Below, in pieces: positions 17,709-52,875 of a stretch of 64,000 bases of DNA. The position numbers and the translations under genes were made by a program. Within the stretch, counting starts at the first letter, position 1, and each line of letters starts with the position of its first letter. Source of the DNA: Podarcis muralis (lineage: Eukaryota); the NCBI RefSeq assembly GCF_964188315.1, contig NC_135661.1:74338001-74402000 (forward strand), given 5' to 3'. The notes beneath the pieces are model-generated. The model did not search any database, was not told the DNA's origin, and was given only the letters and a program-made list of their open reading frames with translations.

Positions 17709-18393
17709 CCGCCTGCTAGCCTGCTCCCTAAAATATCACTGGTTTGCTCATTTCTATATGTAGGGTGCCTACATTCTGCATGGATTGGTTGCATGGCAAC
17801 ATGTGCAAATGGCTTTAGATACCTATTAGGTCCATAAATTACCATATAGCCTATATTCAATGCAAAAAACAGCAACAATTTGTTGTTGACAAAGGACAGC
17901 TGGACATATAAAGGGCCCCATTACCTTCAGTAGCTTAGGGCCTCATCAAATCTCAATCCGGCCCTGGTAGTAGTAGTAATCACAATCACAATTAATAATA
18001 ATTTGCACCCACCAATAATTTAGGTGAAGAGTCATTGCTCCGTGGCAGTGCATCTGCTTGGCATGCGGAAGGTCCCAGCTCCATTCCCCGGCATTTCCAG
18101 GTAGGGCTGTGATAGAGCTGAAACCCTGGAGAGCCTCTGGCAGTCACTATTGGGAATACTGAGCTGGATAAATGAATGGCCTGACTTGGGACAAGGCAGT
18201 TTCCTGTGTTCCTAACCAGATGTTTTAAGACTGGAACCTAGCAGAGCACAACAAGACTCAGAGCTTGGGCTGTGTGCTCTGACTGAGTCTCAGAACTGGA
18301 CACTCCTTTGGGTTTCTGCAAACACAGTCTGCACACTGATGAGATCTATTCATCAGCAATTTGGACATTATTGACTTATTCAGAGTAACGATG

Positions 18394-18989
18394 TGTTGTA
18401 AACAAAATCTGCCCTTCTTCCCTTATGGGGTATCCAAGAGCTTGTATAGAGTCCTTAAGTGAGTTCCCTATCGGTAGGAGAAAATAACAGAGGCCAACCA
18501 GAGAATATTGAGAAGCAAAGCAGCTAGTAAACCTGATCTTTATTAAAGCTGTTGCAACAGGGTGCTCCCCTCACACGCAGGAGGACCCAGAACAAAGGTG
18601 TGCCTGCTCTTATATATGTATTTTAAATTCCCAGCCCTGGAGCTCAAGACCACCCCTCCATACATCATACCTATATCACAGAAAAGGCGTCTATAACAGG
18701 AATTTGAATGTTGTTTTTTTTCCTGTCTGCCAGGTTATCTGATTGCCTTTCCTGGTAGTCTGCCCATTCCTTTGAGATGGTGATTACCCAATTCCTGAGA
18801 TAATGGAGAGGCTCCCTCACCCCCTCCCTCCTTGCAGAGAAAACATTTGGTCAGTTTGGGAGTCAAAATGGTTTCAGGGCGGTCTTCCTGTTCTGCTCCA
18901 GACATGTGGTCCACATATCTATGTACGTGCTTGGTTGGTACATTCATGAACATTTATTATATATATAAGACCTTAAATTTTTTATTACA
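18394..18989 (-). mobile_element. Solo ERV-type LTR in the D1 intron
   Basis: TG...CA ends; perfect 5-bp TSD CGATG (18389-18393 and 18990-18994); minus-strand AATAAA near 18540; same family as 44473-45104. Confidence 0.88.
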
Positions 18990-20990
18990 CGATGTATGGA
19001 TTATCTAATTAATTAATTCTCCCCCGAGTCTGCTGTGCCTTTTACTCTCCAAGTATGATATCAACCCACTATTCCAGTTGTAAATGGGGTTACTGAGGTT
19101 TGCCAGTTATATAAAAAAAGCTCCTGACTTTGCTTGGCAGGATAATCTGAAGAAGCAACTCCTCCCCCTCCCCCAAGTCACATCAGTTTGAACCGGCTGA
19201 GATTTATGCTGCCACAAACTTGGTTGCACCATCAGCCACAAGCTTATCTGGATTGCCACAATGATCAAACATACCCATCAGTTGTGCAACAGTGCTACTG
19301 CTAGTAATATCAGTCAAGGCGCTATGCTTCTACAACCAGTGTTGATTTACCAGTTCAAACAGGCCATCTGCTATCTGTTTCCAAGGACTATCAAGGTAAG
19401 GGTCTTGCGATTAAAAGTTCCTTCCATTGTGTCGATCTATTTGCTCTGCAGCGCAGCATAGGTTAAGATTTTGTTCTTCCTACCAGTTGCAATACCCAGC
19501 CACTATTCCTTTGAACCCCAGTAGGGCAACACAGACACCCACATATTAAGTGATAATGTTCCACAGTCTGCATTAGGTTATTTGGTGGTGGCAGTAGTAG
19601 TAGTAGTAGCAGCAGCAGCAGCAGTAGTAATACCACACCCATCTAGCTGGGCTGCCCCAGCCTGTTGAATGGTTTCTTTAAATGTAAAGGTTCATCATTG
19701 TTCCACTCGATGTGTATGTCTTTAAGGGGCCAGAGCAAGGGCCAGAGCAAGATAACGAGACCCAGCTTTACAGCTGTGAAACATAGCAGGTGCTGCTGAG
19801 TTGTATTTGATTAAGGTGTGTCAGCATTTGGGTGTAGTATATAAGGAGCAGCCCCTAGCTCTCCCATTACCCTGGGGGTTGGGTTGGTGGTTGGGTCTGG
19901 TTTGTTGTTGATGTATTTAGTGTAAATGGAGTTTTTGTTTTTCTTATTACAACCTTGTTTAAGTTATTTTTGAGTCCCTTTTTAATGCATGGTCTCCCCA
20001 GCAAGCTCTCTGCAGCGCTACTATACTGCAACAGCCAACACAGCCAACACATATAAAAACATAATAAATCACCAAACATTAAAAACCTGCTGATACAAGA
20101 CTCCTTTCAGATGTCTTACAAATCACCTATAACATGATGCTAAGCGGAGAACCAACCAGCCGCTGCTGCAAAGATGGAAGGAAGGGGTGCAATTCTTGTA
20201 ACTGCTTTGAAAGGATGTTCAGGTTGTGCAATGCACAGCAGCTGCAATCCACCACCACTTGGGAAAATGGGCATCTGATTCGGTCAGCTGATTCCCAGCT
20301 GCAGTAAACGATTCCATCCATATCGGCAAAACTCAGGCAAAGCTACCACCCAAAAGAACGCTTAGATGTTAGAATTTAGTGGTGGCCCAGCTTAAACTTG
20401 GAATGAGGCTCTAGTTCATTGCTCTTCAACCTTAGGTGCCCCTATATTGGTGGATTACAGTTCCCATCATCCTTGACCATTGACTAAGCTGGCTGTGGTT
20501 GATGGGAGTTGTAGTCCAACGACATCTGGGGACCCAAGGTTGAAGACTACTGCAGTCTAGTCCACGAAAATGGATGCCACCAACCCATACCCACCTGTTC
20601 ATCTTTAAGTTGCCAGGAGACTCTCTTTCTGATTTCCTGCCTCTCCAGAAGCTACTCTGGAAGAGTAAACATGCACCTTTGCAAGCCTGCTCTGTCTGCA
20701 AACACCACCCACTCTGTGCCTTATAGTGCTTTCGCCTTCATTGACTCCCCAGCCTATAGCACATCACAACAGTCCTTGACATTGTGGGGAAAGGGCTCAT
20801 AGTGAAAGCCACAAGCTTCGACTCTTCCACCCAGAGCGCCAGTTTTGGCCCAACCAGTGCAAGCCCTGAAGTCTCCTAATACACAGTTCTCAAGAGGTAA
20901 AAGTTAAGTGGGGCATGCCATCTCTGCCCCCTTGTATTCTAGCACTGCATAATGCCCTCCCACGCTCACTTTCCCTCTCTTGTTTCTCAC

Positions 20991-33137: not shown

Positions 33138-33311
33138 TCAGGGCTTCTGCGGTGGAAGGTAGGCTGCTGTGGTAGAAACAACCACTACGATGATGATATA
33201 TATGACAAGGCACCCCAGCCCAATCCCCAGAGCGATGTGACCGAAGAGGCGTGCCATTCGGGAATTTCTCTTGGCGGACGCGGCATTTCCAGCAAAGTTG
33301 GCTTCTCTTGT
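33138..33311 (-). CDS. D2 coding exon 2 (57 aa + stop)
   Basis: Acceptor ctctctttctcttcag|ACA; TREANFAGNAASAKRNSRMARLFGHIALGIGLGCLVIYIIIVVVVSTTAAYLPPQKP*. Confidence 0.9.
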   Translation of the reverse strand, partial: TREANFAGNAASAKRNSRMARLFGHIALGIGLGCLVIYIIIVVVVSTTAAYLPPQKP

Positions 33312-37274: not shown

Positions 37275-37631
37275 CTGTATAGAGTAGACCAAGGCAGCAA
37301 TACCAAGGGGTAAGCAGCAGCAGAGCATGGTGAAGATGGAGTAGATCAGGTAATCGGGTTCATTGGTGGGCTGTACAGGTGTGACGTAGACCGCCTGTGG
37401 AGGTTGAAGGACTGGGCCTAGGTTAGATCCTGCACCAGGTGGGCCATAGTAAGGCATTGCCCCATAGCCTGCTTGGGGTGCTGGCACAGCCCCATAGCCT
37501 GCTTGGGGTGCTGGCCCAGGAGGCTGTTTCAGTGGGTCAGGCTCTGCATAGGCCTCTTTTTCAGAGTAGGCAGGGGGGTTCTGAGCGGCAAGTGCCTTCT
37601 CACCCAGCTGTTCATAGTTTGGTTTGCTCAT
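37275..37631 (-). CDS. D2 CD225/dispanin-family protein, coding exon 1 (119 aa; splices to 33311)
   Basis: caccaccATG at 37631; MSKPNYEQL...PPAY...EPDYLIYSIFTMLCCCLPLGIAALVYSIQ; donor CAG|GTAAGT, phase 0. Confidence 0.93.
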
Positions 37632-40496: not shown

Positions 40497-43400
40497 TTGG
40501 GAGCACAGGGTGAGTTAATCAATCTGCCTGACTGATTAAATACTGCTGTCCTTATTCAAATCTACAGAATGAAGGATCTAAGCTGATAGTTCTAGGAATG
40601 TGAAATGTGTTCCTGGAATGCGAATTGTGCAAACCCATGTAAACTAGTTCTGAGTAGGCGAGCTCCAAAGTGAAATTACAGGAACTGAGACAAAGACATC
40701 TGCCTGTAGTTTGCAAGTCCTTTGTTTAAGGAACCAAAAATAGAGTGTGGTATGCTTTTAGGCAGACAAATCCTCACTGCGGTCAGGAACAGGGCCTTTC
40801 AGATTTATTCATTTTATTTTAATAGTATTCATCCCATAAAGCATGTAGCCATGGGACTGCTGGGCCGGGAGGCAGTAAGTGGAGCCAGAGCCAATCACAG
40901 GCAGAACTGCCCCCTGTCTGGCTGTAAGTAAGAAGGCAGGCAGGTGGGGGCTGCCTGAGGTTTGGTGGGCCACTGTCCCATTTGCCCTCATGGACCAGTC
41001 TCCACTGAAAACACCTCCATCATATAATGTTGTTGGCACCCGCCTGTCTCAAGAGAATGAGGTGAAGTCAAACAGCTGTGCTAGCAGCACCAAAGTCACC
41101 TCCCTGGGGTGCAAGCCTGGGCAGTGTGTAAAGTGGTCCTGGTCTGTTCAGATGACAAGACTCTTGGAAAGCAGAGCAATACATTTAGCACCAGCTTGGC
41201 TGCAGGAGTTTCTGGAAGGAGGTGTAAAAGGCGCCACCCAACCGTCTTGGGGACTGAACTCCAGATTTGTGAAGGGGTTACTCCTTAGCTTTTCCTTCTC
41301 CTGAAGATATCCCGCAAAGCAGCGAAGGTTTAGGATCAGAGTTTTCCTTCTTCTAGGTAGAGTACCTTACAGGTTGACCAGCACCACCTGCCCCTCACTT
41401 GCCTCTACAGCACTTGCGGATACCACGTGTTGGACCCACTACAGTGGTACCTTGGTTCTCAAACACCTTGGTACTCAAACAACTTGGAATGCAAACACCG
41501 CAAGTAAGTGTTCCAGTTTGTGAACTTTTTTTGGAAGTTGAACATGCTCCGTCTTGAGTGTTACACTGAGGTCCATCTGTTTTTGCTATTTAATTTTGCC
41601 TTTTTGTTTTTGCGGCTCTTTTTGTTTTGTTTTTGTGACTGTTTGGAACCCAGTTCGGCTACTGAATGATTGATTGTGTGACTGTAGTACATTGTTTATT
41701 GCTCTCATTTTATGGATCAATGGTCTTGTTAGATTGTAAAATTCATATTAAATTGTTCTTTTAGGAGTTGTTTTTAAAAGCCTGGAATGGATTAATCCAT
41801 TTTGCATTACTTTCTATGGGAAAGCGTGCCTTACATTTGGAACACTTTGGTTTTGGAACGGACTTCGGGAAAGGATTAAGTTTGAGAACCCCAAGGTACC
41901 ACTGTATTGGTCTGAGACCCATCAGCTACCCTCCCTTGGTTTAGCCAGCCAATTGAAACCACTCTCAGGGTGTGGCCATTATCACGTGCTGACATCTTCT
42001 AGGAGCCACAGATGAGAGCTGAGTGCAAGGCAGGGGCACCAGCTCCTGGGAGCCGACCCCATTTGGCCCCCCTCAATATTTTTGGGAGAGTCTGGGGCCT
42101 TCATGTCCAAAAAGCATGGAGGTGAAGTGTGGAGCTGAGAGTGGCACAGCTCCAGTGGCTGACTCCTTCTCCTCCACCTCCTGCCATGGAATGGAAGGAG
42201 GGTCGAAGCAGCTTCCTGCTGGTGGCTGTTCCAGGAGGAGGTGGAGTCCAAGCCACCGGCCATTGAAGCCACCCGGCCTCCATGTTTATATACCTGAGAC
42301 CTTAAATTCTTATAACAATGCCCTCTCTGTAGCTATAATTTTTACTAAAAAAAATTATAATAACCTGGTAGCCACCTTATGATATATTGTAAATGGATGC
42401 TTTTGTGTAAATCTGAAGAGACTTGCATGTCAGGCTTCTTAAGAATATTCACAAGTGTGGCAGTGCAGATAGCTGGACATAGGATGTCACGTAAAAATAA
42501 CACAAGTTGCATTCTCTTACTAAATTACCTGTGGCATTCTAGCACTTTGGGAGAAACATTTTCTCAATACAGTGGTACCTCGGGTTGAAGGCGCTTCAAG
42601 TTACAGACGCTTCAGGTTACAGACTCCGCTAACCCAGAAATAGTACCTCTGGTTAAGAACTTTGCTTCAGGATCAGAACAGAAATCGTGCTCCGGCAGTG
42701 TGGCAGCAGCAGCAGGCCCCATTAGCTAAAGTGGTACCTCAGGTTAAGAACAGTTTCAGGTTAAGAACGGACCTCCGGAACGAATTAAGTTATTAACCCG
42801 AGGTACCACTGTGTTCTATGCTTTTCACTCAGCAGGAAGGTCCAAAAATGATTGAAACAGTTTGTTTCGTTTCTGCCTTTTTTGTGTTCTCAGGAGCCAA
42901 AGTTAGCTCTCCTCTAGTCTTTCACCTTCATCATACCACAGCAACAACAAACCCTGGTCTTAGGGGTTTCATGGAGCATGTCACATTGTACCCGCCACAA
43001 GTTTGGACATGTCATGAGAGAGATGTCTTTGCCTTGAACTTTCTATGGGCTTTTATTATCATAGGCTCTGGTCTTGCACTCTACGGAAGTTGCTCACTTG
43101 CTCTTAAGGACAAAAACAAAACAAAACAAAACATTTGCAGCCTGGATACACTTGCCCAATTCAAACTGAGTCCAATTAGAATTTATATAGCCCCATGGTT
43201 CTCAACTTTTGAAACCAATCTGTTAAAAACCATTCTTAAAAAAGGGCAGTTGTCCTAGTCTCGTGGGACAGAGCATTCCACCAGGTCGGAGCCCTCACTG
43301 AAAAAGCCCTGGCCCTAGTGGAGGATAGTCCTATAGCTTTCTAAGTTCTTTTTCTTCTTAGGTTGTGGTCAGAAAAGAGAAAATGCCCTTAATAATTCAA

Positions 43401-44451
43401 CTATTCAACACCCCTCCCCCACTGCCCTCAAGTCCTTTATGGATAGAAATTGCTGTGGCCACGCTGATGTCCTTTTGGCAGGGAATACTCTTGAAGCAAT
43501 GCAGGCTGGTTTCACCATTCAGTTTCCAATAACACATCCTTTGAAGAGACAGGCCTGCAGAGGGTTGGGGTCTGAAGACACAATCAGTTAAAAGAAAAAG
43601 GGAGTAAGAAAATAAATAGCCAAGGAAGGGGAGAATATCCTTCAAATTTCTTCTTAAGAAGCTGTAAACAATACAAAATTTTAGAGTTAAGCATTTTATT
43701 CATTTAATTATTATTATCACCTTTCCATATAATTACTACTGTTATTTTCTGCTCCGTCTGTTTACTTTCCTTCACTTAGTTTTTGGGTGTTGTGGGAGAA
43801 AAGAAGGGAAAAAACCTACATTTTTACACAAAGCACACAAAGGGGTATTTCTCACTGCAATTCCCTCCATGGTTCCCAATTTTACATTAAGAAATTTGAA
43901 TAAAGTTTCATGTGCAGGGCATAGCTTTGTCACCTCTTGTTTTAAACCTTCTTTTTATTTTCTTTCTAAGCTAACATAGCCTCTGTACATGTACAGAGTT
44001 CATGATTCAGCAAATCTATTATATCATTTAAAGTGTTGCATCTCCTGACTAAATTACTATTTGAATAAAGCCATGATTGGCTTTTCTTACCAGGGACTCG
44101 TGGAAGGGAAGGGGTAGATTTAAAAAATCTGTAAACAAAGAGCAGAAAAAGGATTGATAGAGGGAGAGTTTTTTTAGTTGCTGGGGTTGGAGAGTCCTGC
44201 CCACCTTCTTCCCCATGCACAGTCCCTTATACTCACTTCTGCAAGCGCTGCTCCTGGCGATCCTGGGATCTTTTACAAAATTATTTATGGCTGGCCTGAT
44301 CAAGTGTTGCTTCCTCTGGTTAGCCCCACTGGAACTCCAGTTATTTCCAGACCCTGGGATCGCTGGTGGACTGGTGGCTCCTCCTGGCAAATGGCCCGGT
44401 GCGCATTGGATCACCAGTCCTTCCTCACCCCCAGAATCTGGACAGCCAAAG

Positions 44452-44469
44452 CTCCTGCCTAGCTCACCA
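44452..44469 (-). promoter_or_regulatory. Retroviral primer-binding site, tRNA-Arg-like
   Basis: TGGTGAGCTAGGCAGGAG matches 15 of 18 nt of TGGCGAGCCAGCCAGGAG, the complement of the vertebrate tRNA-Arg(ACG) 3' end as I recall it. Confidence 0.7.
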
Positions 44470-44472
44470 TAT

Positions 44473-45104
44473 TGACGTAAACAAAATCTGCTCCTTTCTC
44501 CTTATGGGCTATCCAAGGACTCGTATAGAGTCCTTAAGCGAGTTCCTTATCAGTAGGAGAAAATAACAGGCCAACCAGAGAATACTGAGGAGCAAAGCAG
44601 CTACTGAGCTTGATCTTTATTAAACTGTTGCAACTGGGTCCTCACTCACCACAAGCAGAAGAGAGGAGGAACCCAGAACAATGGTGTGCAAGCCCTTATG
44701 TAGACTTTTGAAACTGCCCACCCTGTATCTCAAACATCATACACACATCACAGAAGGAGGCGGTCTACAACAGAAATCCTGTCTGCCAGGATACCTGACA
44801 ATGGCCAGTGATTGCTTACTTGGGGAGCCTGGCCATTATTTTGTGATAGTAAATACTTTAATTCCTGAATCCAGGTCACAAGCTCACCCTATTCATACAG
44901 AAAGATGCCCTAAAGACAGGTAAGCAAAAGACAATGGAGAGTCTTCCCCATTTCCTTCCTCCTTGCAGAGAAACATTTGAGGTCAATTTGGGAGATCCAA
45001 AATGGTTGTTCTCCTGTACTATTTCAGACACGTGGTTTACATACTCATGTATATGTTTGCCTTGTAAATTTATGAACATTTTTTATCTAAAATTTCTTGT
45101 AACA
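44473..45104 (-). mobile_element. ERV-type 5' LTR inserted in D3 exon 2
   Basis: TG...CA ends (minus strand TGTTACAAG...GTTTACGTCA); AATAAA at 44621-44616; homologous to the solo LTR at 18394-18989. It is followed after 3 nt by a PBS-like 18-mer. Confidence 0.85.
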
Positions 45105-45226
45105 ATGATGATATATAAAATAAGGAGCCCCAGCCCAATCCCGAAAGCGAGGTGAGAGAAGAGGCGTGCCATTCGGGAGTTTCTCTCGGCGGACGCGGCA
45201 TTTCCAGCGAAGTTGGCTTCTCTTGT
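45083..45226 (-). CDS. D3 coding exon 2 (47 aa + stop; final codons from an LTR)
   Basis: Acceptor ctctttctctgcag|ACA; TREANFAGNAASAERNSRMARLFSHLAFGIGLGLLILYIIIVTRNFR*. Similarity to D2 stops at 45105, and 45104 downward is LTR sequence. Confidence 0.88.
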   Translation of the reverse strand, partial: TREANFAGNAASAERNSRMARLFSHLAFGIGLGLLILYIIIVTRNFR

Positions 45227-47923
45227 CTGCAGAGAAAGAGAGAGAAGCGAGTGAGAAACCACACCGCCAGGGAACACCTCCAGCATGCAGAAGTGGCAAG
45301 CTGAGAAACAGCTGCCTGGTGTTAGCCAACGAAGAATCTTGTTGCTTGAGGCTATCAGTCACTTACCAGTAACCTTGTGGTTTTAGTCTGGAACCTAGCA
45401 GAGCAGAGCAAGACTGTAAGCCAGGCATAGGCAAACCCGGCCCTCCAGATGTTTTGGGACTACAAATCCCATCACCCCTAGCTAACAGGACCAGTGGTCA
45501 GGGATGATGGGAATTGTAGTCTCAAAACATCTGGAGGGCCGGGTTCATATCGTATGTTTAAAACACCCACCCCACAAAAATCCTGGGAGCTGTAGTTTGT
45601 TAAGAGTGGCTGGGAACTGAGAAATGTGCTTTAAATGGACTTTTTGAAATGTGTGGTGCATATGTAGCCACAAGTTCTATGGCAAGGCGCACTGCATAAG
45701 AGCATGGCAACCCTGATCAGGCCAGTAGCCTGTCTAGCCAAGCATCATGTTCTCACATTATGCAATGTTTTAAAGTGAGAAAGAGAAGAGAAGGAGGGAG
45801 GAGGGAGCCGCAGCAGCAGCAGCAGCAGCAGCAGCGAACTAGAAGGGTAGAAAGAGAGAATAAGAAAGTGAATGTGGGTTAGAGAAAGGTAAATGAAATA
45901 TACCCTAGAGAAAGATTAGATGAAGGTAGCCTATTCTTTGGTGGTGGAGAGGAGATTATGAGCCTCTGCTCCCCACTCCTTGGCGTTGGGGTATCCCGAT
46001 TAAGAGATCCACAAGGAGGCGCTTCTGTCCATACATCCAGGCTAAGAGCCACAGCACTCCCCAATGCCGCAAGTCTGTGCAGGTTGCATTTATTTAATGT
46101 ATGTCATGGGTCGACCCCAAATCAGGGTTGGTCCCCAGAATCCCTCCAGCAGGCTGACTGGAGAAGATGGTGGCTGCTCATTGCCAAGCCAAAACTCAGT
46201 TACACTTGTAATCAACAAAGTTGTGGCCTAATTGAACCTCACGGAATGTTTCCTGTAGTCCTTGTTTTACTGATATGGCCCGATGGGGAGGGGTTCACGG
46301 TCCCTGGGCACACAGTTATGGAGAACTCGCTTACAATGAGCATTTGCACAACTCCTTGCTCGGGGGCGATGCACAAAGAAGGGAAATGAGCCCATTGACG
46401 CGAGCCGTATCCTGGATCACATCCACATTTAAGCTGGGTCACACCAGTGGCTTTCTGCCATACTCTCTCTCTCTCTCTCTCTGCTAATTTCATGCACATT
46501 GTTTTAAAGGGAGGAAGAGAGGAGGAGGTGCAGGGGAGAGGAGGAGGAGGAGGAGGAGAGAATAAGGAAGAAAGAGAAAGGAAAATCAAACATGCCCCAA
46601 GAGAAAGATCAGATGGGTAGCTCAGTCTGCTAGAGCATAGTGCTGATAACGCCAAGGTTGCAGGTTCGACCCTCCAATGGGAGAGCTGCATATTTCTGTA
46701 TTGCAGGGGGTTGGACTAGATGATCCTCAGGGGCCTCCTGACTCTACAATTATACAATTCTGTGAATGCATGCAGTAAAAGAGGAAGGAAGGAAGACAAA
46801 GGTGGATCCCAGTTCTCGAAACACAGAGCACTGAGCCTGGATCCAGCATTAGCTGTGCCATAATCAGGTTGGTATTGGGGAGGCATAGAGAGCTCTTTGC
46901 CCCACAGCTGATCATCTGCAGCATCATGCCCAGTGAAGAATTGGCCCTTGATCTAAGGATATGAGGAACAATCTCCTAGCTGTGTGGCAAGATATTCCAG
47001 GTGACCATCTCACCAAGTTGCAAACAGATCCATGGTTAGTTAGCTCTTGCCAAAGAGTCGGTTTTCCAACCACAGTCCTCATTGCATTAAAATAAAAAAG
47101 TTTGATTCCACATCACACCTTTAACCATGCCTGGATTCTGAAGCTAAGTGGTGGCATGATATTCATTTTGTTATTATTTATTAAATGCACATACTGCCCT
47201 TTATCTGAGGATCACATGGTGGGTACCTACCTATCAAGGTTAAGTCGGTGCAACAATTTGTTCCCTTTAAGGTGCTATGAGACTCTCCCTTGCTCACACC
47301 GCAACAGACTAGCAGATAGACACCTTTGCAAAGCAATTTCCCATAATACGATGCAATCCTTTCTTAGATGTTGCTTTTATGAGTGTATGCATTTTACGCA
47401 CGTTTTGCCCTAGCGTTTGCGTTTTGGTACACACATACTTGGCTGGAGAACTGTGTTGCAAAATACAGAGAAGTTTACATTTTGGGAGGAGGACTGTTTT
47501 TCGGTTTGTGTATCATTTCGGAAAGAGCAAATTAGGTAGGTTTGCCTTTCAATTCAAACTGCATCAAGTTTCTCTCCTCACTCCCCTCCCATCGTGCCAA
47601 TGCTTGGACTGCAAAGGGAAATATCTTTCAATGAAATCCAGAAGTCCCACTCCCAATTACAGCCAAATTATAGCTTGCGATGTCACCTTCCAAAAACAGC
47701 ACTTAAGCCAATGCTAGTCCTACTCAGAGCAGACCCACTGAAATCAATGACCATTACAAACTTGGACCCATTATTTGCAATGGGTCTTCTCTGAGTAGAA
47801 CTCAGTTGGGTGCAACCCCTTGTTACTAAGGGGGGGGGGAAATGCCTTTTTGCCTCCTTTGTTTTCTAGCAAAGCCTCACCCCCACCCCCATTTGTTTGC
47901 CTCTCCCTTTCACACACACCTAC

Positions 47924-48370
47924 CTGTACAGAGTAGACCAAGGCGACAATACCAAGAGGTAAGCAGCAGCAGAGCATGGTGAAGATGGAGTAGATCAAGT
48001 AATCGGGTTCATTGGTGGGCTCTACAGGTGTGACGTAGACCGCCTGTGGAGGTTGAAGGACTGGGCGTAGGTGAGATCCCGCAACGGGTGGGCCATAGTA
48101 AGGCATTGCCCCATAGCCTGCTTGAGGTGCTGGCATAGCCCCATAGCCTGCTTGGGGTGCTGGCATTGGCCCATAGCCTGCTTGGGGTGCTGGCATTGCC
48201 CCATAGCCTGCATGAGGTGCTGGCATTAACCCATAGCCTGCTTGGGGTGCTGGCCCAGGAGGCTGTTTCAGTGGGTCAGGCTCTGTATAGGCATCTATTT
48301 CAGAGTAGGCAGGGGGGTTCTGAGCGGCAAGTGCCTTCTCACCCAGCTTTTCATGCTTTGGGTTGCTCAT
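47924..48370 (-). CDS. D3 CD225/dispanin-family protein, coding exon 1 (149 aa from the homologous ATG; splices to 45226)
   Basis: ATG at 48370 is homologous to the D2 start (an in-frame upstream ATG lies at 48442). Contains five PAPQAGYGAM-type repeats and EPDYLIYSIFTMLCCCLPLGIVALVYSVQ; donor CAG|GTAGGT, phase 0. Confidence 0.92.
48103..48252 (-). repeat. Coding minisatellite, 5 x 30 bp (PAPQAGYGAM) in D3; 2 copies in D2 at 37454-37513
   Basis: Exact 30-nt periodicity of GCATTGCCCCATAGCCTGCTTGGGGTGCTG (plus strand). Confidence 0.95.
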
Positions 48371-49591
48371 TGTGGTGCTTTCTTCTTCTTCCTTTGTCTT
48401 CTCAGTTCTGGAACCTCTGCTCAGTTCTTGGTGTTCCTCCATTGTGGCTGCCCTGGTTAGCTGCTGGGTGTCCTGCTCTCTCTCTCTCTCCCCCCCCCCC
48501 CCCCCGTTCTCCTACCCTCTGCCTTAAAACCCTCTTCCTGTGGTCTGGGTCTTCTTTAAGGTGTGTGTGTTGCCTCTGCAATGCTGGCCAGGCTTTGGGT
48601 CCTTCCTTTGGAGACTCCTAGATACGCAGCTTCTTAGACAGGACAGATTTGCTGTGTCTAGCTTTCCAGATGAAGAGCGTGTGGAATGAGGGGCAAGCAA
48701 TGAGCAAGAGACAGTTTTGTCCTGGGTATTGCAACACAGGTCCAGGAAGTGGAGGATATTTCCTGGCCATGTAGTGCTGTAGTTCTTTTCCGTCATCCTT
48801 GCTGTGGACATGGACACACACGGCAGAGAGATTTTGCAATTCTCAAGTATCTGAGATGTCATCGGGTCTGCGCAGGTTCATAAATTTGGGGAGGCTAGTA
48901 GTTTCTCCCAGGCCAGATATACAGCTCCCACGTAGGAGAATCTGAGATGTGCCCTAATAAGGCATCCCTCTCTCTTTCATTATAAACTTTTAGGAAGAAT
49001 TCAAAAACATTGCTGCTCCCTTAGGCATTTGTTGGCTGAAAGATCTGTTCTTGGCAACCCTGAAATTATTTGCTGTGGGAGTAGAGGCCTTTTTAAAAGA
49101 TGTTTTTAACTCTTAAACTGGAGAGTTGTTTTAAACTGTTTTTGTAAGATTAAATTGCTTCATTATTGATGTGGTTGCTACTCCTTAGGAGGAAGGGCAG
49201 GATGTAAGTTTAATAAAATGAATGAATGAATGAATAAATGAATGAATGAATGAATGAATGTAGTCTAGTCTATGTTGAATCCTAAATTTGGGTAGAAATC
49301 CAAAGATACTGATCCTTTCATGCTAGAGAAGACAGCTGCTGAATGCCATGGGATGGAANNNNNNNNNNNNNNNNNNNNNNNNNNNNNNNNNNNNNNNNNN
49401 NNNNNNNNNNNNNNNNNNNNNNNNNNNNNNNNNNNNNNNNNNNNNNNNNNNNNNNNNNNNNNNNNNNNNNNNNNNNNNNNNNNNNNNNNNNNNNNNNNNN
49501 NNNNNNNNNNNNNNNNNNNNNNNNNNNNNNNNNNNNNNNNNNNNNNNNNNNNNNNNNNNNNNNNNNNNNNNNNNNNNNNNNNNNNNNNNNN

Positions 49592-51065
49592 GGGTGTCTT
49601 CCCGTGTAAAAGTTGGGGTGTCTAGGCGACGTTTCGACGAGGTCTCACTCGTCATCTTCAGGCTGGTGCTTTCGGCTTCTTGTTACTGGAACAGAGCAGG
49701 ATCTCAGTGTTTGAGTTCCTATAAATACTGTTGAGGAGGTGTGGCCTCTAATGTTCTTGGGCAGAGAGGAAGTTCCCAGGCTAGTGTGCCTTTTCTTCTT
49801 TTGTTTCTTAATTACTTGAGGGATATCTTGAGTGATTTCTTGAGTTGTATCCTGAGTACCACTTAGGTGGGTCATTAGGTGTGGATTAGTTGCTAAAGCC
49901 TTTGTGTCTTGACCTCTTGAACTTTGTGAAGAGTTTTTCTGGGAAGATGGTTGTACTGCATTTTGTTGTGCTCTGGCTTGGCTTCGTGTATAGGGGCGAG
50001 CTGTGGTTTTGTGGTCTGTGCCAGCCAGATCTGTGTAGGGATTGCAGGGGGGTGCAGCATCCGGAGGTGCCACCATGGTTTGGCTACTGGATGGTATCTG
50101 TAATTCATCTGTGGAGAGGGTCTGGGTTTGGGTCTGGTGTGGTTGATTGGTGATGGCGTTCTGTGTGCCTCTGGCTCTGGTGTCAGTTTTTGTGGGGAGG
50201 GCTAATTTCCAGATGTCTGGCAAGCGGGATGTGTCGTCACGCTTGTTCATGTTGTGAGGGTGTTTCTCTATCTCGATGGCTTCCATGATTATTCTCTTGT
50301 GGTGATGTTCCATGTTAAAGAGCAATTTGGAATCTGCAAAATTAATTTCGTGTCCTGTTTCTTTCATGTGTTGGAAAAGAGAGGAAGTTTTTTCTTCTTT
50401 TTTGACGGCATTCTTGTGTTCTGCGATACGTGCATTTATTCGTCTGTTAGTTTGTCCAATGTACGTGGCTGGGCAGACTTTGCAGGGTATTTCATAGACC
50501 CCTTGGTTTTCCAACTGGATTTTATCCTTGGGGTTTCTGAGGATATTGGCTATTTTTTGGTTGGTGCAAAAGGCTGTTTTGATATTGTGTTTATGGAGGA
50601 TTTTGCTAATTTTATCTGTAGTGCCCTTGATATAAGGAAGGAGGGCCATGCCATTGTTTTCTTCTGTGTCTTGGTTTTTTGGGGGTGTTTCTTTTTGGAT
50701 TAGCTTCGTAACCCTGTTTTGCTGGTATCCATTGGCAATTAACACATTTGAGAGATTCTGTAACTCAGTTGTCAAGTGGTTTTTGTCAGCCAGGCGTTTG
50801 GTTCTGGAGATGAGAGTCTTGGCTACGGAGTTTATTTGTGCAGGGTGGTGGTGTGATTGTGCATGTAAGTAGCGGTTGGTGTGTGTTTTTTTCCGGTAGA
50901 TAGTGTGTCCTAGGGAGCCATCAGGTTTTTTGTAGATTAGGACGTCAAGGAAGGGAAGTTGGTTGTTGGCTTCTATTTCCATAGTGAATTGTATTTTGGG
51001 GTGTAGGCTGTTGAGATGTGTGAGGAAGCTATCCAGTTTTTCCTTCCCGTGTGGCCAAATTACAA
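49592..51065 (-). mobile_element. Inverted copy of the Penelope-like 3' 1474 bp
   Basis: Reverse complement of 51369-52842. Mirror coordinates sum to 102434 throughout, and the two 445-aa translations are identical. Confidence 0.9.
49622..49669 (-). ncRNA. Mirror copy of the hammerhead motif
   Basis: Exact reverse complement of 52765-52812, within the inverted arm. Confidence 0.7.
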
Positions 51066-52875
51066 GTCGAAGCTAGCCTAACCAAAATCAACCCAGATGA
51101 AGCCAATAAAATCAGACTTGAAGTCACCAACATCCTCTGCTCCAGCAAACCACCCAGAAGCAATTTACACAAAGAAGAACAGAAAGCACTCACCGACCTG
51201 AGGAAAGACAACAACATAATCATTCTCCCAGCAGACAAAGGTAATGCCACTGTTGTGATGAACACATCGGACTACCAAGCAAAACTATCAAATCTACTCC
51301 AAGACCCTACCTACCAACCTATAAAAACAGATCCCACCACCTTTGGCTCAGATATGTTGACGACACCTTTGTAATTTGGCCACACGGGAAGGAAAAACTG
51401 GATAGCTTCCTCACACATCTCAACAGCCTACACCCCAAAATACAATTCACTATGGAAATAGAAGCCAACAACCAACTTCCCTTCCTTGACGTCCTAATCT
51501 ACAAAAAACCTGATGGCTCCCTAGGACACACTATCTACCGGAAAAAAACACACACCAACCGCTACTTACATGCACAATCACACCACCACCCTGCACAAAT
51601 AAACTCCGTAGCCAAGACTCTCATCTCCAGAACCAAACGCCTGGCTGACAAAAACCACTTGACAACTGAGTTACAGAATCTCTCAAATGTGTTAATTGCC
51701 AATGGATACCAGCAAAACAGGGTTACGAAGCTAATCCAAAAAGAAACACCCCCAAAAAACCAAGACACAGAAGAAAACAATGGCATGGCCCTCCTTCCTT
51801 ATATCAAGGGCACTACAGATAAAATTAGCAAAATCCTCCATAAACACAATATCAAAACAGCCTTTTGCACCAACCAAAAAATAGCCAATATCCTCAGAAA
51901 CCCCAAGGATAAAATCCAGTTGGAAAACCAAGGGGTCTATGAAATACCCTGCAAAGTCTGCCCAGCCACGTACATTGGACAAACTAACAGACGAATAAAT
52001 GCACGTATCGCAGAACACAAGAATGCCGTCAAAAAAGAAGAAAAAACTTCCTCTCTTTTCCAACACATGAAAGAAACAGGACACGAAATTAATTTTGCAG
52101 ATTCCAAATTGCTCTTTAACATGGAACATCACCACAAGAGAATAATCATGGAAGCCATCGAGATAGAGAAACACCCTCACAACATGAACAAGCGTGACGA
52201 CACATCCCGCTTGCCAGACATCTGGAAATTAGCCCTCCCCACAAAAACTGACACCAGAGCCAGAGGCACACAGAACGCCATCACCAATCAACCACACCAG
52301 ACCCAAACCCAGACCCTCTCCACAGATGAATTACAGATACCATCCAGTAGCCAAACCATGGTGGCACCTCCGGATGCTGCACCCCCCTGCAATCCCTACA
52401 CAGATCTGGCTGGCACAGACCACAAAACCACAGCTCGCCCCTATACACGAAGCCAAGCCAGAGCACAACAAAATGCAGTACAACCATCTTCCCAGAAAAA
52501 CTCTTCACAAAGTTCAAGAGGTCAAGACACAAAGGCTTTAGCAACTAATCCACACCTAATGACCCACCTAAGTGGTACTCAGGATACAACTCAAGAAATC
52601 ACTCAAGATATCCCTCAAGTAATTAAGAAACAAAAGAAGAAAAGGCACACTAGCCTGGGAACTTCCTCTCTGCCCAAGAACATTAGAGGCCACACCTCCT
52701 CAACAGTATTTATAGGAACTCAAACACTGAGATCCTGCTCTGTTCCAGTAACAAGAAGCCGAAAGCACCAGCCTGAAGATGACGAGTGAGACCTCGTCGA
52801 AACGTCGCCTAGACACCCCAACTTTTACACGGGAAGACACCCGAGGACACCAAAACCTGCATTCCTGTACCCGTG
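51051..52875 (+). mobile_element. Penelope-like element (RT + GIY-YIG endonuclease), internally deleted
   Basis: ILPADKGNATVVM (RT N-terminus) is joined out of frame at about 51342 to WLRYVDDTF, then ORF 51452-52789 with GVYEIPCKVCPATYIGQT (GIY-YIG). A gap follows. Confidence 0.92.
52765..52812 (+). ncRNA. Minimal type I hammerhead ribozyme motif in the Penelope 3' end
   Basis: CTGAAGA (52773-52779), T, stem II GACGAG-tgagac-CTCGTC, GAAA (52799-52802), then CGTC (palindromic ACGT, GUC cleavage triplet). Stem I pairing is weak. Confidence 0.7.

Follow-up and report, generated by a model that had tools for sequence, protein, structure and literature searches.

The analysed window is a stretch of 64,000 nucleotides of the Podarcis muralis genome (NC_135661.1, positions 74,338,001 to 74,402,000). 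It contains genes of the CD225 family, among them the paralogs D2 and D3, and the last coding exon of D3 runs into the long terminal repeat (LTR) of a transposable element. The gene features are listed below.

47924..48442, minus strand: coding part of D3 exon 1, 173 codons from the upstream ATG, with Pro-rich repeats and the first half of the CD225 domain (RefSeq XP_028598401.1)
45227..47923, minus strand: D3 intron, GT-AG; the joint 45226/47924 is seen in runs X24, X16 and X17
45105..45226, minus strand: host portion of D3 exon 2, the loop and the transmembrane (TM) helix as far as YIII
45083..45104, minus strand: LTR-derived coding end of D3 by translation (third base of an Ile codon, V-T-R-N-F-R, TAA), spanned by contigs of X15, X16 and X17 with 0 differences
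37275..37631, minus strand: coding part of D2 exon 1
33141..33311, minus strand: coding part of D2 exon 2, whose uninterrupted tail serves as the empty-site comparator

The host/LTR switch in D3 exon 2

Exon 2 of D3 starts at 45226, and its alignable homology to D2 exon 2 stops at 45105-45102, in agreement with the switch to LTR sequence that a preliminary description had placed at 45104. This first LTR base is the third base of the last Ile codon of D3. The in-frame translation of 45226-45083 reads TREAN...LILYIIIVTRNFR and then a stop; it ends in YIIIVTRNFR with the stop codon at 45085-45083, so that the proposed reading of V-T-R-N-F-R-TAA through the LTR holds. A longer tail past the YIII position is present in all five other exon-2 paralogs found in the genome (six matches). 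The Podarcis muralis RefSeq protein XP_028598401.1 is the counterpart of D3 with an identical end (230 aa vs 220 aa here). The LTR-derived tail is already part of gene models, and its origin is not remarked in the records examined. An assembly artefact or a chance likeness was ruled out, as both junctions at D3 are bridged by contigs of other runs and the protein records of four species are in agreement.

Several features of the 5' part of the gene were observed in addition. In the coding part of exon 1 (47924-48442), the N-terminus of D3 is extended by 24 residues, and a Pro-rich repeat of 10 residues varies in copy number within and between species. Runs X16 and X17 share a joint at 48440-48557, where 116 bases near the 5' end of exon 1 give way to other sequence, probably the 5' UTR of D2. 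A perfect 1474-bp inverted repeat (49592-52842) with GIY-YIG frames below the cut-off lies upstream of D3, some 1.2 kb from its start codon; it is presumably Penelope-like, and its 100% identity suggests a young insertion.

Structure of the LTR element

The switch at 45104 is the outer edge of an element with the following parts; a related solo LTR is given for comparison.

44473..45104, minus strand: 5' LTR in sense orientation to D3, delimited by family alignment, with TG...CA ends and without TATAA
44616..44621, minus strand: intact AATAAA of the LTR, likely read through
44452..44469, minus strand: primer-binding site (PBS), tRNA-Arg(ACG), 16 of 18 bases
44223..44451, minus strand: leader, collinear with other 5' LTR copies; candidate splice-donor-like GT at 44236
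43695..43700, minus strand: best candidate for the polyA signal of most D3 mRNA
42484..44123, minus strand: non-coding, internally deleted interior, piecewise collinear with two-LTR relatives of 6-7 kb
42570-42812: 240-bp high-copy repeat nested within the interior
42321..42328, minus strand: polypurine tract
42285..42317, minus strand: 33-bp stub of the 3' LTR, whose last three A are common to the start of D2-upstream DNA
18389..18994, minus strand: related solo LTR (18989-18394) with its 5-bp target-site duplication (TSD), in the D1 intron

The segment 45104-44473 belongs to a genome-wide LTR family with 80-88% identity among the best 40 of 4533 candidates scored. It has TG...CA ends and aligns with the solo LTR at 18989-18394, which is flanked by a perfect 5-bp TSD; the kinship proposed earlier for the two copies is thereby confirmed. 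TATAA occurs in 16 of the 19 best family copies and is missing from the D3 LTR, while AATAAA is intact in 17 of the 19 and also in D3, at 44621 and in the described sense orientation. The PBS (44469-44452) agrees with the host tRNA-Arg(ACG) at TGG and then at 13 of 15 bases, as its description as tRNA-Arg-like had implied. With a PBS, a leader, a polypurine tract and a 3' LTR stub behind it, the D3 copy is supported as a 5' LTR rather than a solo LTR. The earlier statement that there is no 3' LTR was wrong, since the polypurine tract and the first 33 bp of this LTR are found at 42328-42285. The stub differs by 1-5 bases from the LTR starts of nine of the ten family copies with a start called; it is too short for dating the insertion.

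Altogether, the D3 element is a 2.8-kb two-LTR unit. Four interior pieces (44068-43961, 43785-43660, 43255-42811 and 42569-42484) match two-LTR relatives of 6-7 kb in the same order, as they do for 13 of 14 further loci. Family members have perfect TSDs of 4 bp (loci L048 and L008) or 5 bp (the solo copy in the window), or partial ones (six others); the right flank of the D3 copy is lost.

No coding link to retroviruses was found in the material searched. The element gave no blastn or tblastx match to 30 of 150 Gag_p30 loci, and 12 of 40 long frames scanned, from 14 relatives of which four have no 150-aa frame at all, revealed no gag, pol or env inside the element. A further 12 frames were of copia or LINE type, or matchless. 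Long ORFs beside related copies were rejected as genes of the element itself, being copia, LINE or zinc-finger neighbours. Of the retrovirus named in the preliminary description, the ERV-type cis features stand, and gag, pol and env were not found in the element or in the relatives tested. We therefore infer an ERV-like non-autonomous LTR element whose putative retroviral descent is read from cis features only. It resembles what we take to be its class, the non-autonomous ERV-type LTR elements, in TG...CA LTRs, a tRNA PBS, a polypurine tract, TSDs of 4-5 bp and a non-coding interior; it differs in that its relatives mostly carry another PBS.

Other copies were noted in the course of this comparison. 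A sister family (L048-L051, L106-L118) consists of 6-7 kb non-coding two-LTR elements with a different PBS, and has moved recently, because the LTRs of one copy are 99.7% identical. In locus L105 (230-2292 and 4394-6385), a long C2H2 zinc-finger frame has a related LTR with its leader next to it in antisense orientation. Another fragment of the LTR family of D3 is located within the gene cluster, between the exon-1 matches of D6 and D7 (L040:3903-4105).

Transcription and splicing of D3

Runs X15-X17 and X20, which we presume to be RNA, were available as contigs, which are unable to show transcript ends; X15 and X16 come from one study. In X17, a single 281-nt contig (record 13) joins D3-type exon-1 alleles, exon 2 and 94 nt of the LTR. 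The GT-AG joint 47924/45226 is covered in X24 by 8 reads with 7 starts on one strand, D2 and D3 being mixed, and is present in X16 and X17 too. The exon/LTR edge is bridged in X15 (depth 319) and X16 (260) with 0 differences, against 0.5-18 in the intron, and exon 2 with the first 94 LTR bases has 0 differences in three runs. Successive contigs of X15 from exon 2 to 43294 have depths of 319, 325, 278, 282, 239 and 127 (intron bin, 0.53). The depths in X16 are 287 for exon 1, 260 for exon 2/LTR and 3-18 for the intron, and a single 1058-nt contig covers 45035-43969 at depth 301. In X24, exon 2 and the interior are covered by reads from the strand of the gene, and sense reads reach about 43750. 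The single-cell runs X22 and X23 (depth at most about 0.35 at exon 2) are too low for use.

These data support the conclusion that D3 is expressed and spliced into its LTR-derived coding end. The absence of D3 transcripts, which had been named as the outcome that would overturn the earlier account, is removed by spliced RNA running through exon 2 into the LTR, and the claim that the LTR supplies a C-terminus without breaking the ORF is borne out. Some D3 exon 1 may splice to exon 2 of D2, outside the stretch examined.

The 3' end of the D3 mRNA

The preliminary description took the AATAAA of the LTR as the likely end of the mRNA. This is not supported, as read depth continues past 44621 at a similar level in four runs of the species (X15, X16, X17 and X24); in X15 it is 325 before the signal, and 282 and 239 after it. 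Depth is lower in the last contigs, 127 in X15 and 187 in X16. One possible fit places a step at about 43680, just past the AATAAA at 43700, which would leave about 30% of the RNA continuing in both runs. X24 fades near 43750, and one X20 contig ends at 43686. The 43700 hexamer is present in three of five related loci aligned. No poly(A)-tailed read or pile-up of ends is among those listed for two RNA alignments, whose tables are swamped by repeats and hold 249 and 402 further loose ends. Most D3 mRNA likely does not end at the first polyA signal of the LTR; its 3' end is probably at least about 0.9 kb past 44621, with the AATAAA at 43700 as the best candidate.

If instead, as first described, D3 mRNA were cleaved at the 5' LTR signal, the downstream RNA would have to be a separate LTR-started transcript. 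The signal is intact, as it is in 17 of 19 copies; a low X17 contig (depth 2.2) covers 44445-44651; and in X20, from organism B (95-98% identical here), RNA of the element interior has a depth of 9-12 and D3 exons are missing, a pattern that an LTR-started transcript and 3' bias explain equally well. Against this, the depth downstream follows that of the D3 exons across a 50-fold range in X15, X16, X17 and X24, a full-depth contig spans the site, and the D3 LTR lacks the TATAA of its family. We consider cleavage at 44621 improbable. Retroviruses repress polyadenylation within the 5' LTR, in the foamy virus case described in PMC3694450 via U1 at the major splice donor. By analogy, read-through in D3 could reflect similar suppression of the 5' signal, perhaps through the donor-like site at 44236.

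The 3' junction and the order of events

The last three A of the 3' LTR stub form a 3-bp microhomology with the upstream DNA of D2, and the homology of D2-upstream to D3-upstream DNA begins exactly at this junction (42287 matches 53370). An X15 contig (42200-42559) bridges the junction with 1 difference. A trace of the D2 tail or 3' UTR downstream of D3 was sought and not found (score 32 vs 27-36 in 20 shuffles), nor does one occur among 40 matches of a second comparison, and no TSD remains at the D3 element; both absences had been described before. The suggestion that a duplication breakpoint coincides with the 5' LTR edge misplaced it, for the breakpoint lies 33 bp into the 3' LTR.

Two histories could account for this arrangement. 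A deletion joined at the microhomology, from 33 bp into the 3' LTR to the D2 upstream region, may have removed the remainder of the 3' LTR and the old tail; we give it about an even chance. A one-step origin, to which we assign somewhat less weight, would be a recombination between two alleles, in which the one with the element was joined, at the AAA microhomology of its 3' LTR, to the upstream region of the one without it, making D3 and D2 in tandem at once with no later deletion. Such a single event would account for the truncated 3' LTR, the absence of a TSD and of the tail, and the start of D2-unit homology exactly at the junction, although a later deletion predicts the same junction, and the exchange requires homologs to recombine while the insertion was polymorphic. 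The timing is compatible with it: substitutions between D2 and D3 amount to 5-9% in the main blocks, not above the 7.6-12% between the LTR and its 19 nearest copies, and because of these distances insertion and duplication look close in time. The D2/D3 value has, however, perhaps been lowered by gene conversion, as it ranges from 4 to 16% by segment, and species-specific residues shared by the paralogs in Zootoca and in L. agilis fit such conversion.

Divergence between D2 and D3 reaches 16% in the 61 bases beside the LTR (45105-45165 vs 33190-33250), against 4-5% just upstream, and exon 2 differs in 7 replacement and 2 silent codons. The rise beside the LTR fits a barrier to conversion. The excess of change in the last 61 nt of exon 2 has p 0.002 against nearby sequence and p 0.12 against the 5' intron; as the latter is not significant, positive selection on the exon end is not claimed.

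Orthologs and survival of the reading frame

Orthologs of D3 end in VTRTFR (P. raffonei), VTRNYR (P. lilfordi) and LTRRA (Zootoca vivipara), and D3 orthologs form one clade in a 21-row tree (support 100/97). The grouping of Zootoca with D3 persists when exon 2 is compared without its tail (3-4 differences vs 7-9). The chance of T-R at both tail places is about 0.003, and T-R is not readable from the tail of D2 in any frame. The Zootoca link is drawn from protein sequence only, with an LTR origin presumed for its tail. On this evidence the insertion probably predates the Podarcis-Zootoca split, which two studies that borrow one calibration put near 37 Mya (PMC7279592; bioRxiv 10.1101/2025.06.04.657811). 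The LTR-derived end of D3 is thus likely tens of millions of years old. Younger estimates of the split exist.

In the register of D3, the LTR start runs into a stop after four codons in nine of ten copies and in the stub (V-I-R-I type). An insertion of such an LTR end would have given a short tail at once, which may explain how the ORF survived. The present tail has changed since insertion, because the first 30 bases of the 5' LTR carry a substitution and indels relative to the family.

In Lacerta agilis, the N-terminus of an annotated isoform (P0126, XP_033014067.1) is of D3 type, and all that follows is identical to D2; this may result from splicing that skips the LTR exon, from fusion of the genes, from conversion or from a model artefact.

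Consequences for the protein

The preliminary description left most of the TM helix intact, which is true only in part. Each of the four D3 orthologs has an uncharged run of 18 residues in this second helix, vs 27 in D2, and the best 19-residue hydropathy is 2.31 vs 3.0. Runs of at most 18 residues occur in 7 of 45 proteins scored (47 examined, two without the motif), four of them D3; since 3 of 41 non-D3 relatives also have them, a helix this short is not special to D3. A single-sequence AlphaFold model places a helix at 193-229 with low confidence (mean pLDDT 58). D3 has lost the helix Cys and gained a basic end.

D3 is probably still a single-pass CD225 accessory protein of membrane trafficking. 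In the cited reports, CD225 C-termini face the lumen or the exterior (PMC7665892), shorter helices are associated with internal membranes, the Golgi among them (PMC4772119), and the location of IFITM1 is under the control of its tail (PMC4349745). On the strength of the latter two, we tentatively suggest, at rather less than even confidence, that the shorter helix and basic tail would move D3 toward internal membranes relative to D2.

D3 could also be a redundant duplicate under relaxed selection, its LTR tail merely tolerated and its protein doing the job of D2 or nothing, a view that falls only a little short of an even chance. D3 changes about twice as fast as D2 (20 vs 10 differences per 140 residues between Podarcis and Zootoca), which fits relaxed selection; its tail varies among species, its RNA is about a quarter of that of D2 in X16 (287 vs about 1070), and the L. 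agilis records found join a D3-type start to the D2 remainder, with no LTR-type tail among them. On the other hand, the ORF, the CCC motif and the loop are intact in four species, T-R and the basic end of the tail are kept, and exon 2 with the adjoining LTR bases is free of differences in the three runs.

The CD225 cluster and its genomic position

D3 matches Pfam PF04505 (CD225) with 86.6 bits (cut-off 27.1). Seven CD225 exon-1 matches lie on C7 at 74.36-74.42 Mb, and a second CD225 cluster occupies C1 at 78.79-78.84 Mb, with motifs that we take to be of IFITM type. The C7 cluster is about 20 kb from an ATP4A exon (C7:74.332 Mb), found by PF00690 and missed by PF00689; this exon scores 114 bits to the gastric H,K-ATPase and at most 73 to others. 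A DUF2053 gene at 74.30 Mb, presumably TMEM147, adjoins the cluster, and HAUS5 is 0.2 Mb off at 74.12-74.14 Mb. PDB searches with D2 exon 1 and with a frame of L058 gave no match. Neither did a profile search with PF03632, presumably an IFITM neighbour. The antiviral-family gene of the preliminary description is therefore a CD225 gene and likely not an antiviral IFITM, the IFITM-type cluster being elsewhere, on C1, and D3 beside ATP4A on C7.

D3 shares the CD225 domain and, presumably, the topology with IFITM1-3, where the C-terminal tail can set location and activity (PMC4349745); it differs from them in locus. Its best solved relative is PRRT1/SynDIG4 (PDB 9zks_M, E 2e-7 across the Pro-rich arm and the CD225 domain), with about 35% identity by eye in the domain; an AMPA-receptor role is not implied for D3.

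The block TMEM147-ATP4A-HAUS5 is that of PMIS2 in PMC11011635, which argues that PMIS2 arose de novo in placental mammals and whose main text contains none of the words CD225, dispanin, IFITM, reptile and lizard. The lizard cluster has the same position, beside ATP4A in this block: over C7:74.12-74.42 Mb (window 15881-64000 and flanks), seven CD225 genes fill the slot of PMIS2. PMIS2/SMA20 (PMC11011635, PMC3395656) is like the lizard genes in two exons, a Pro/Ala-rich N-terminus and two hydrophobic segments, and lies beside ATP4A with HAUS5 nearby. NCBI names one lizard relative (P0008) PMIS2. The lizard cluster differs in its seven copies and in having HAUS5 on the other side, the two being compared by position and not by sequence. 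On this synteny, a CD225 cluster in the PMIS2 slot conflicts with the de novo origin that PMC11011635 proposes.

Discussion

On balance we favour the following account of D3. Its last exon houses a defective element with two LTRs; the spliced mRNA continues into the 5' LTR and likely finishes within the element, and the old tail was likely lost by deletion together with all of the 3' LTR beyond the stub. The structure, the in-frame stop, the splicing and the transcription across and beyond the LTR are direct observations. The 5' LTR supplies the last six codons and the stop, the element supplies much of the 3' UTR, and the mRNA likely runs through the polyA signal of the LTR to end within the element.

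Transposable elements (TE) that form C-termini are known. In the cases given in PMC13709765 (sPD-L1 from an L2a in CD274, IL18R1-Short, IFNAR2-S, IL13RA1-LOR1a), as in D3, a TE gives the terminal residues, the stop and the 3' end of a transcript for a membrane protein. Those are alternative isoforms from intronic elements that mostly lose the TM or cytoplasmic domain, whereas in D3 the element lies within a coding exon, the genome no longer has the old tail, the end is constitutive in one paralog and a shortened helix is kept. D3 is thus a real, well-supported and probably ancient case of a known process, differing from the cases of PMC13709765 in being constitutive and intra-exonic. A literature search of titles and abstract beginnings, with subscription journals and supplements outside its scope, found nothing on the D3 locus.

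All the stronger possibilities taken together make a reading that we hold to be unlikely as a whole. Before wall and common lizards diverged, the LTR and the duplication would together have given their ancestor a new CD225 paralog. Its LTR end would be a selected C-terminal determinant (short helix, T-R, basic tail) that sets a membrane address different from that of D2, kept for up to about 37 million years; the element would be the whole 3' UTR and shield the helix from gene conversion, and the cluster would be the reptile counterpart of PMIS2. If true, such a counterpart would overturn the de novo origin published for this sperm gene, and the synteny of the lizard cluster bears on this claimed birth.

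The locus also cautions against assuming that a 5' LTR in sense orientation uses its AATAAA whenever the hexamer is intact. If D2 and D3 do not differ in function, D3 is an ordinary tolerated insertion in a redundant duplicate. The two genes are a clean natural experiment: almost identical paralogs and each expressed, they are set apart chiefly by the end of the membrane helix that derives from the LTR, with the empty state kept 12 kb away and D3 orthologs in four species. The pair could show whether a TE-made C-terminus alters trafficking, in a family whose tails set location.
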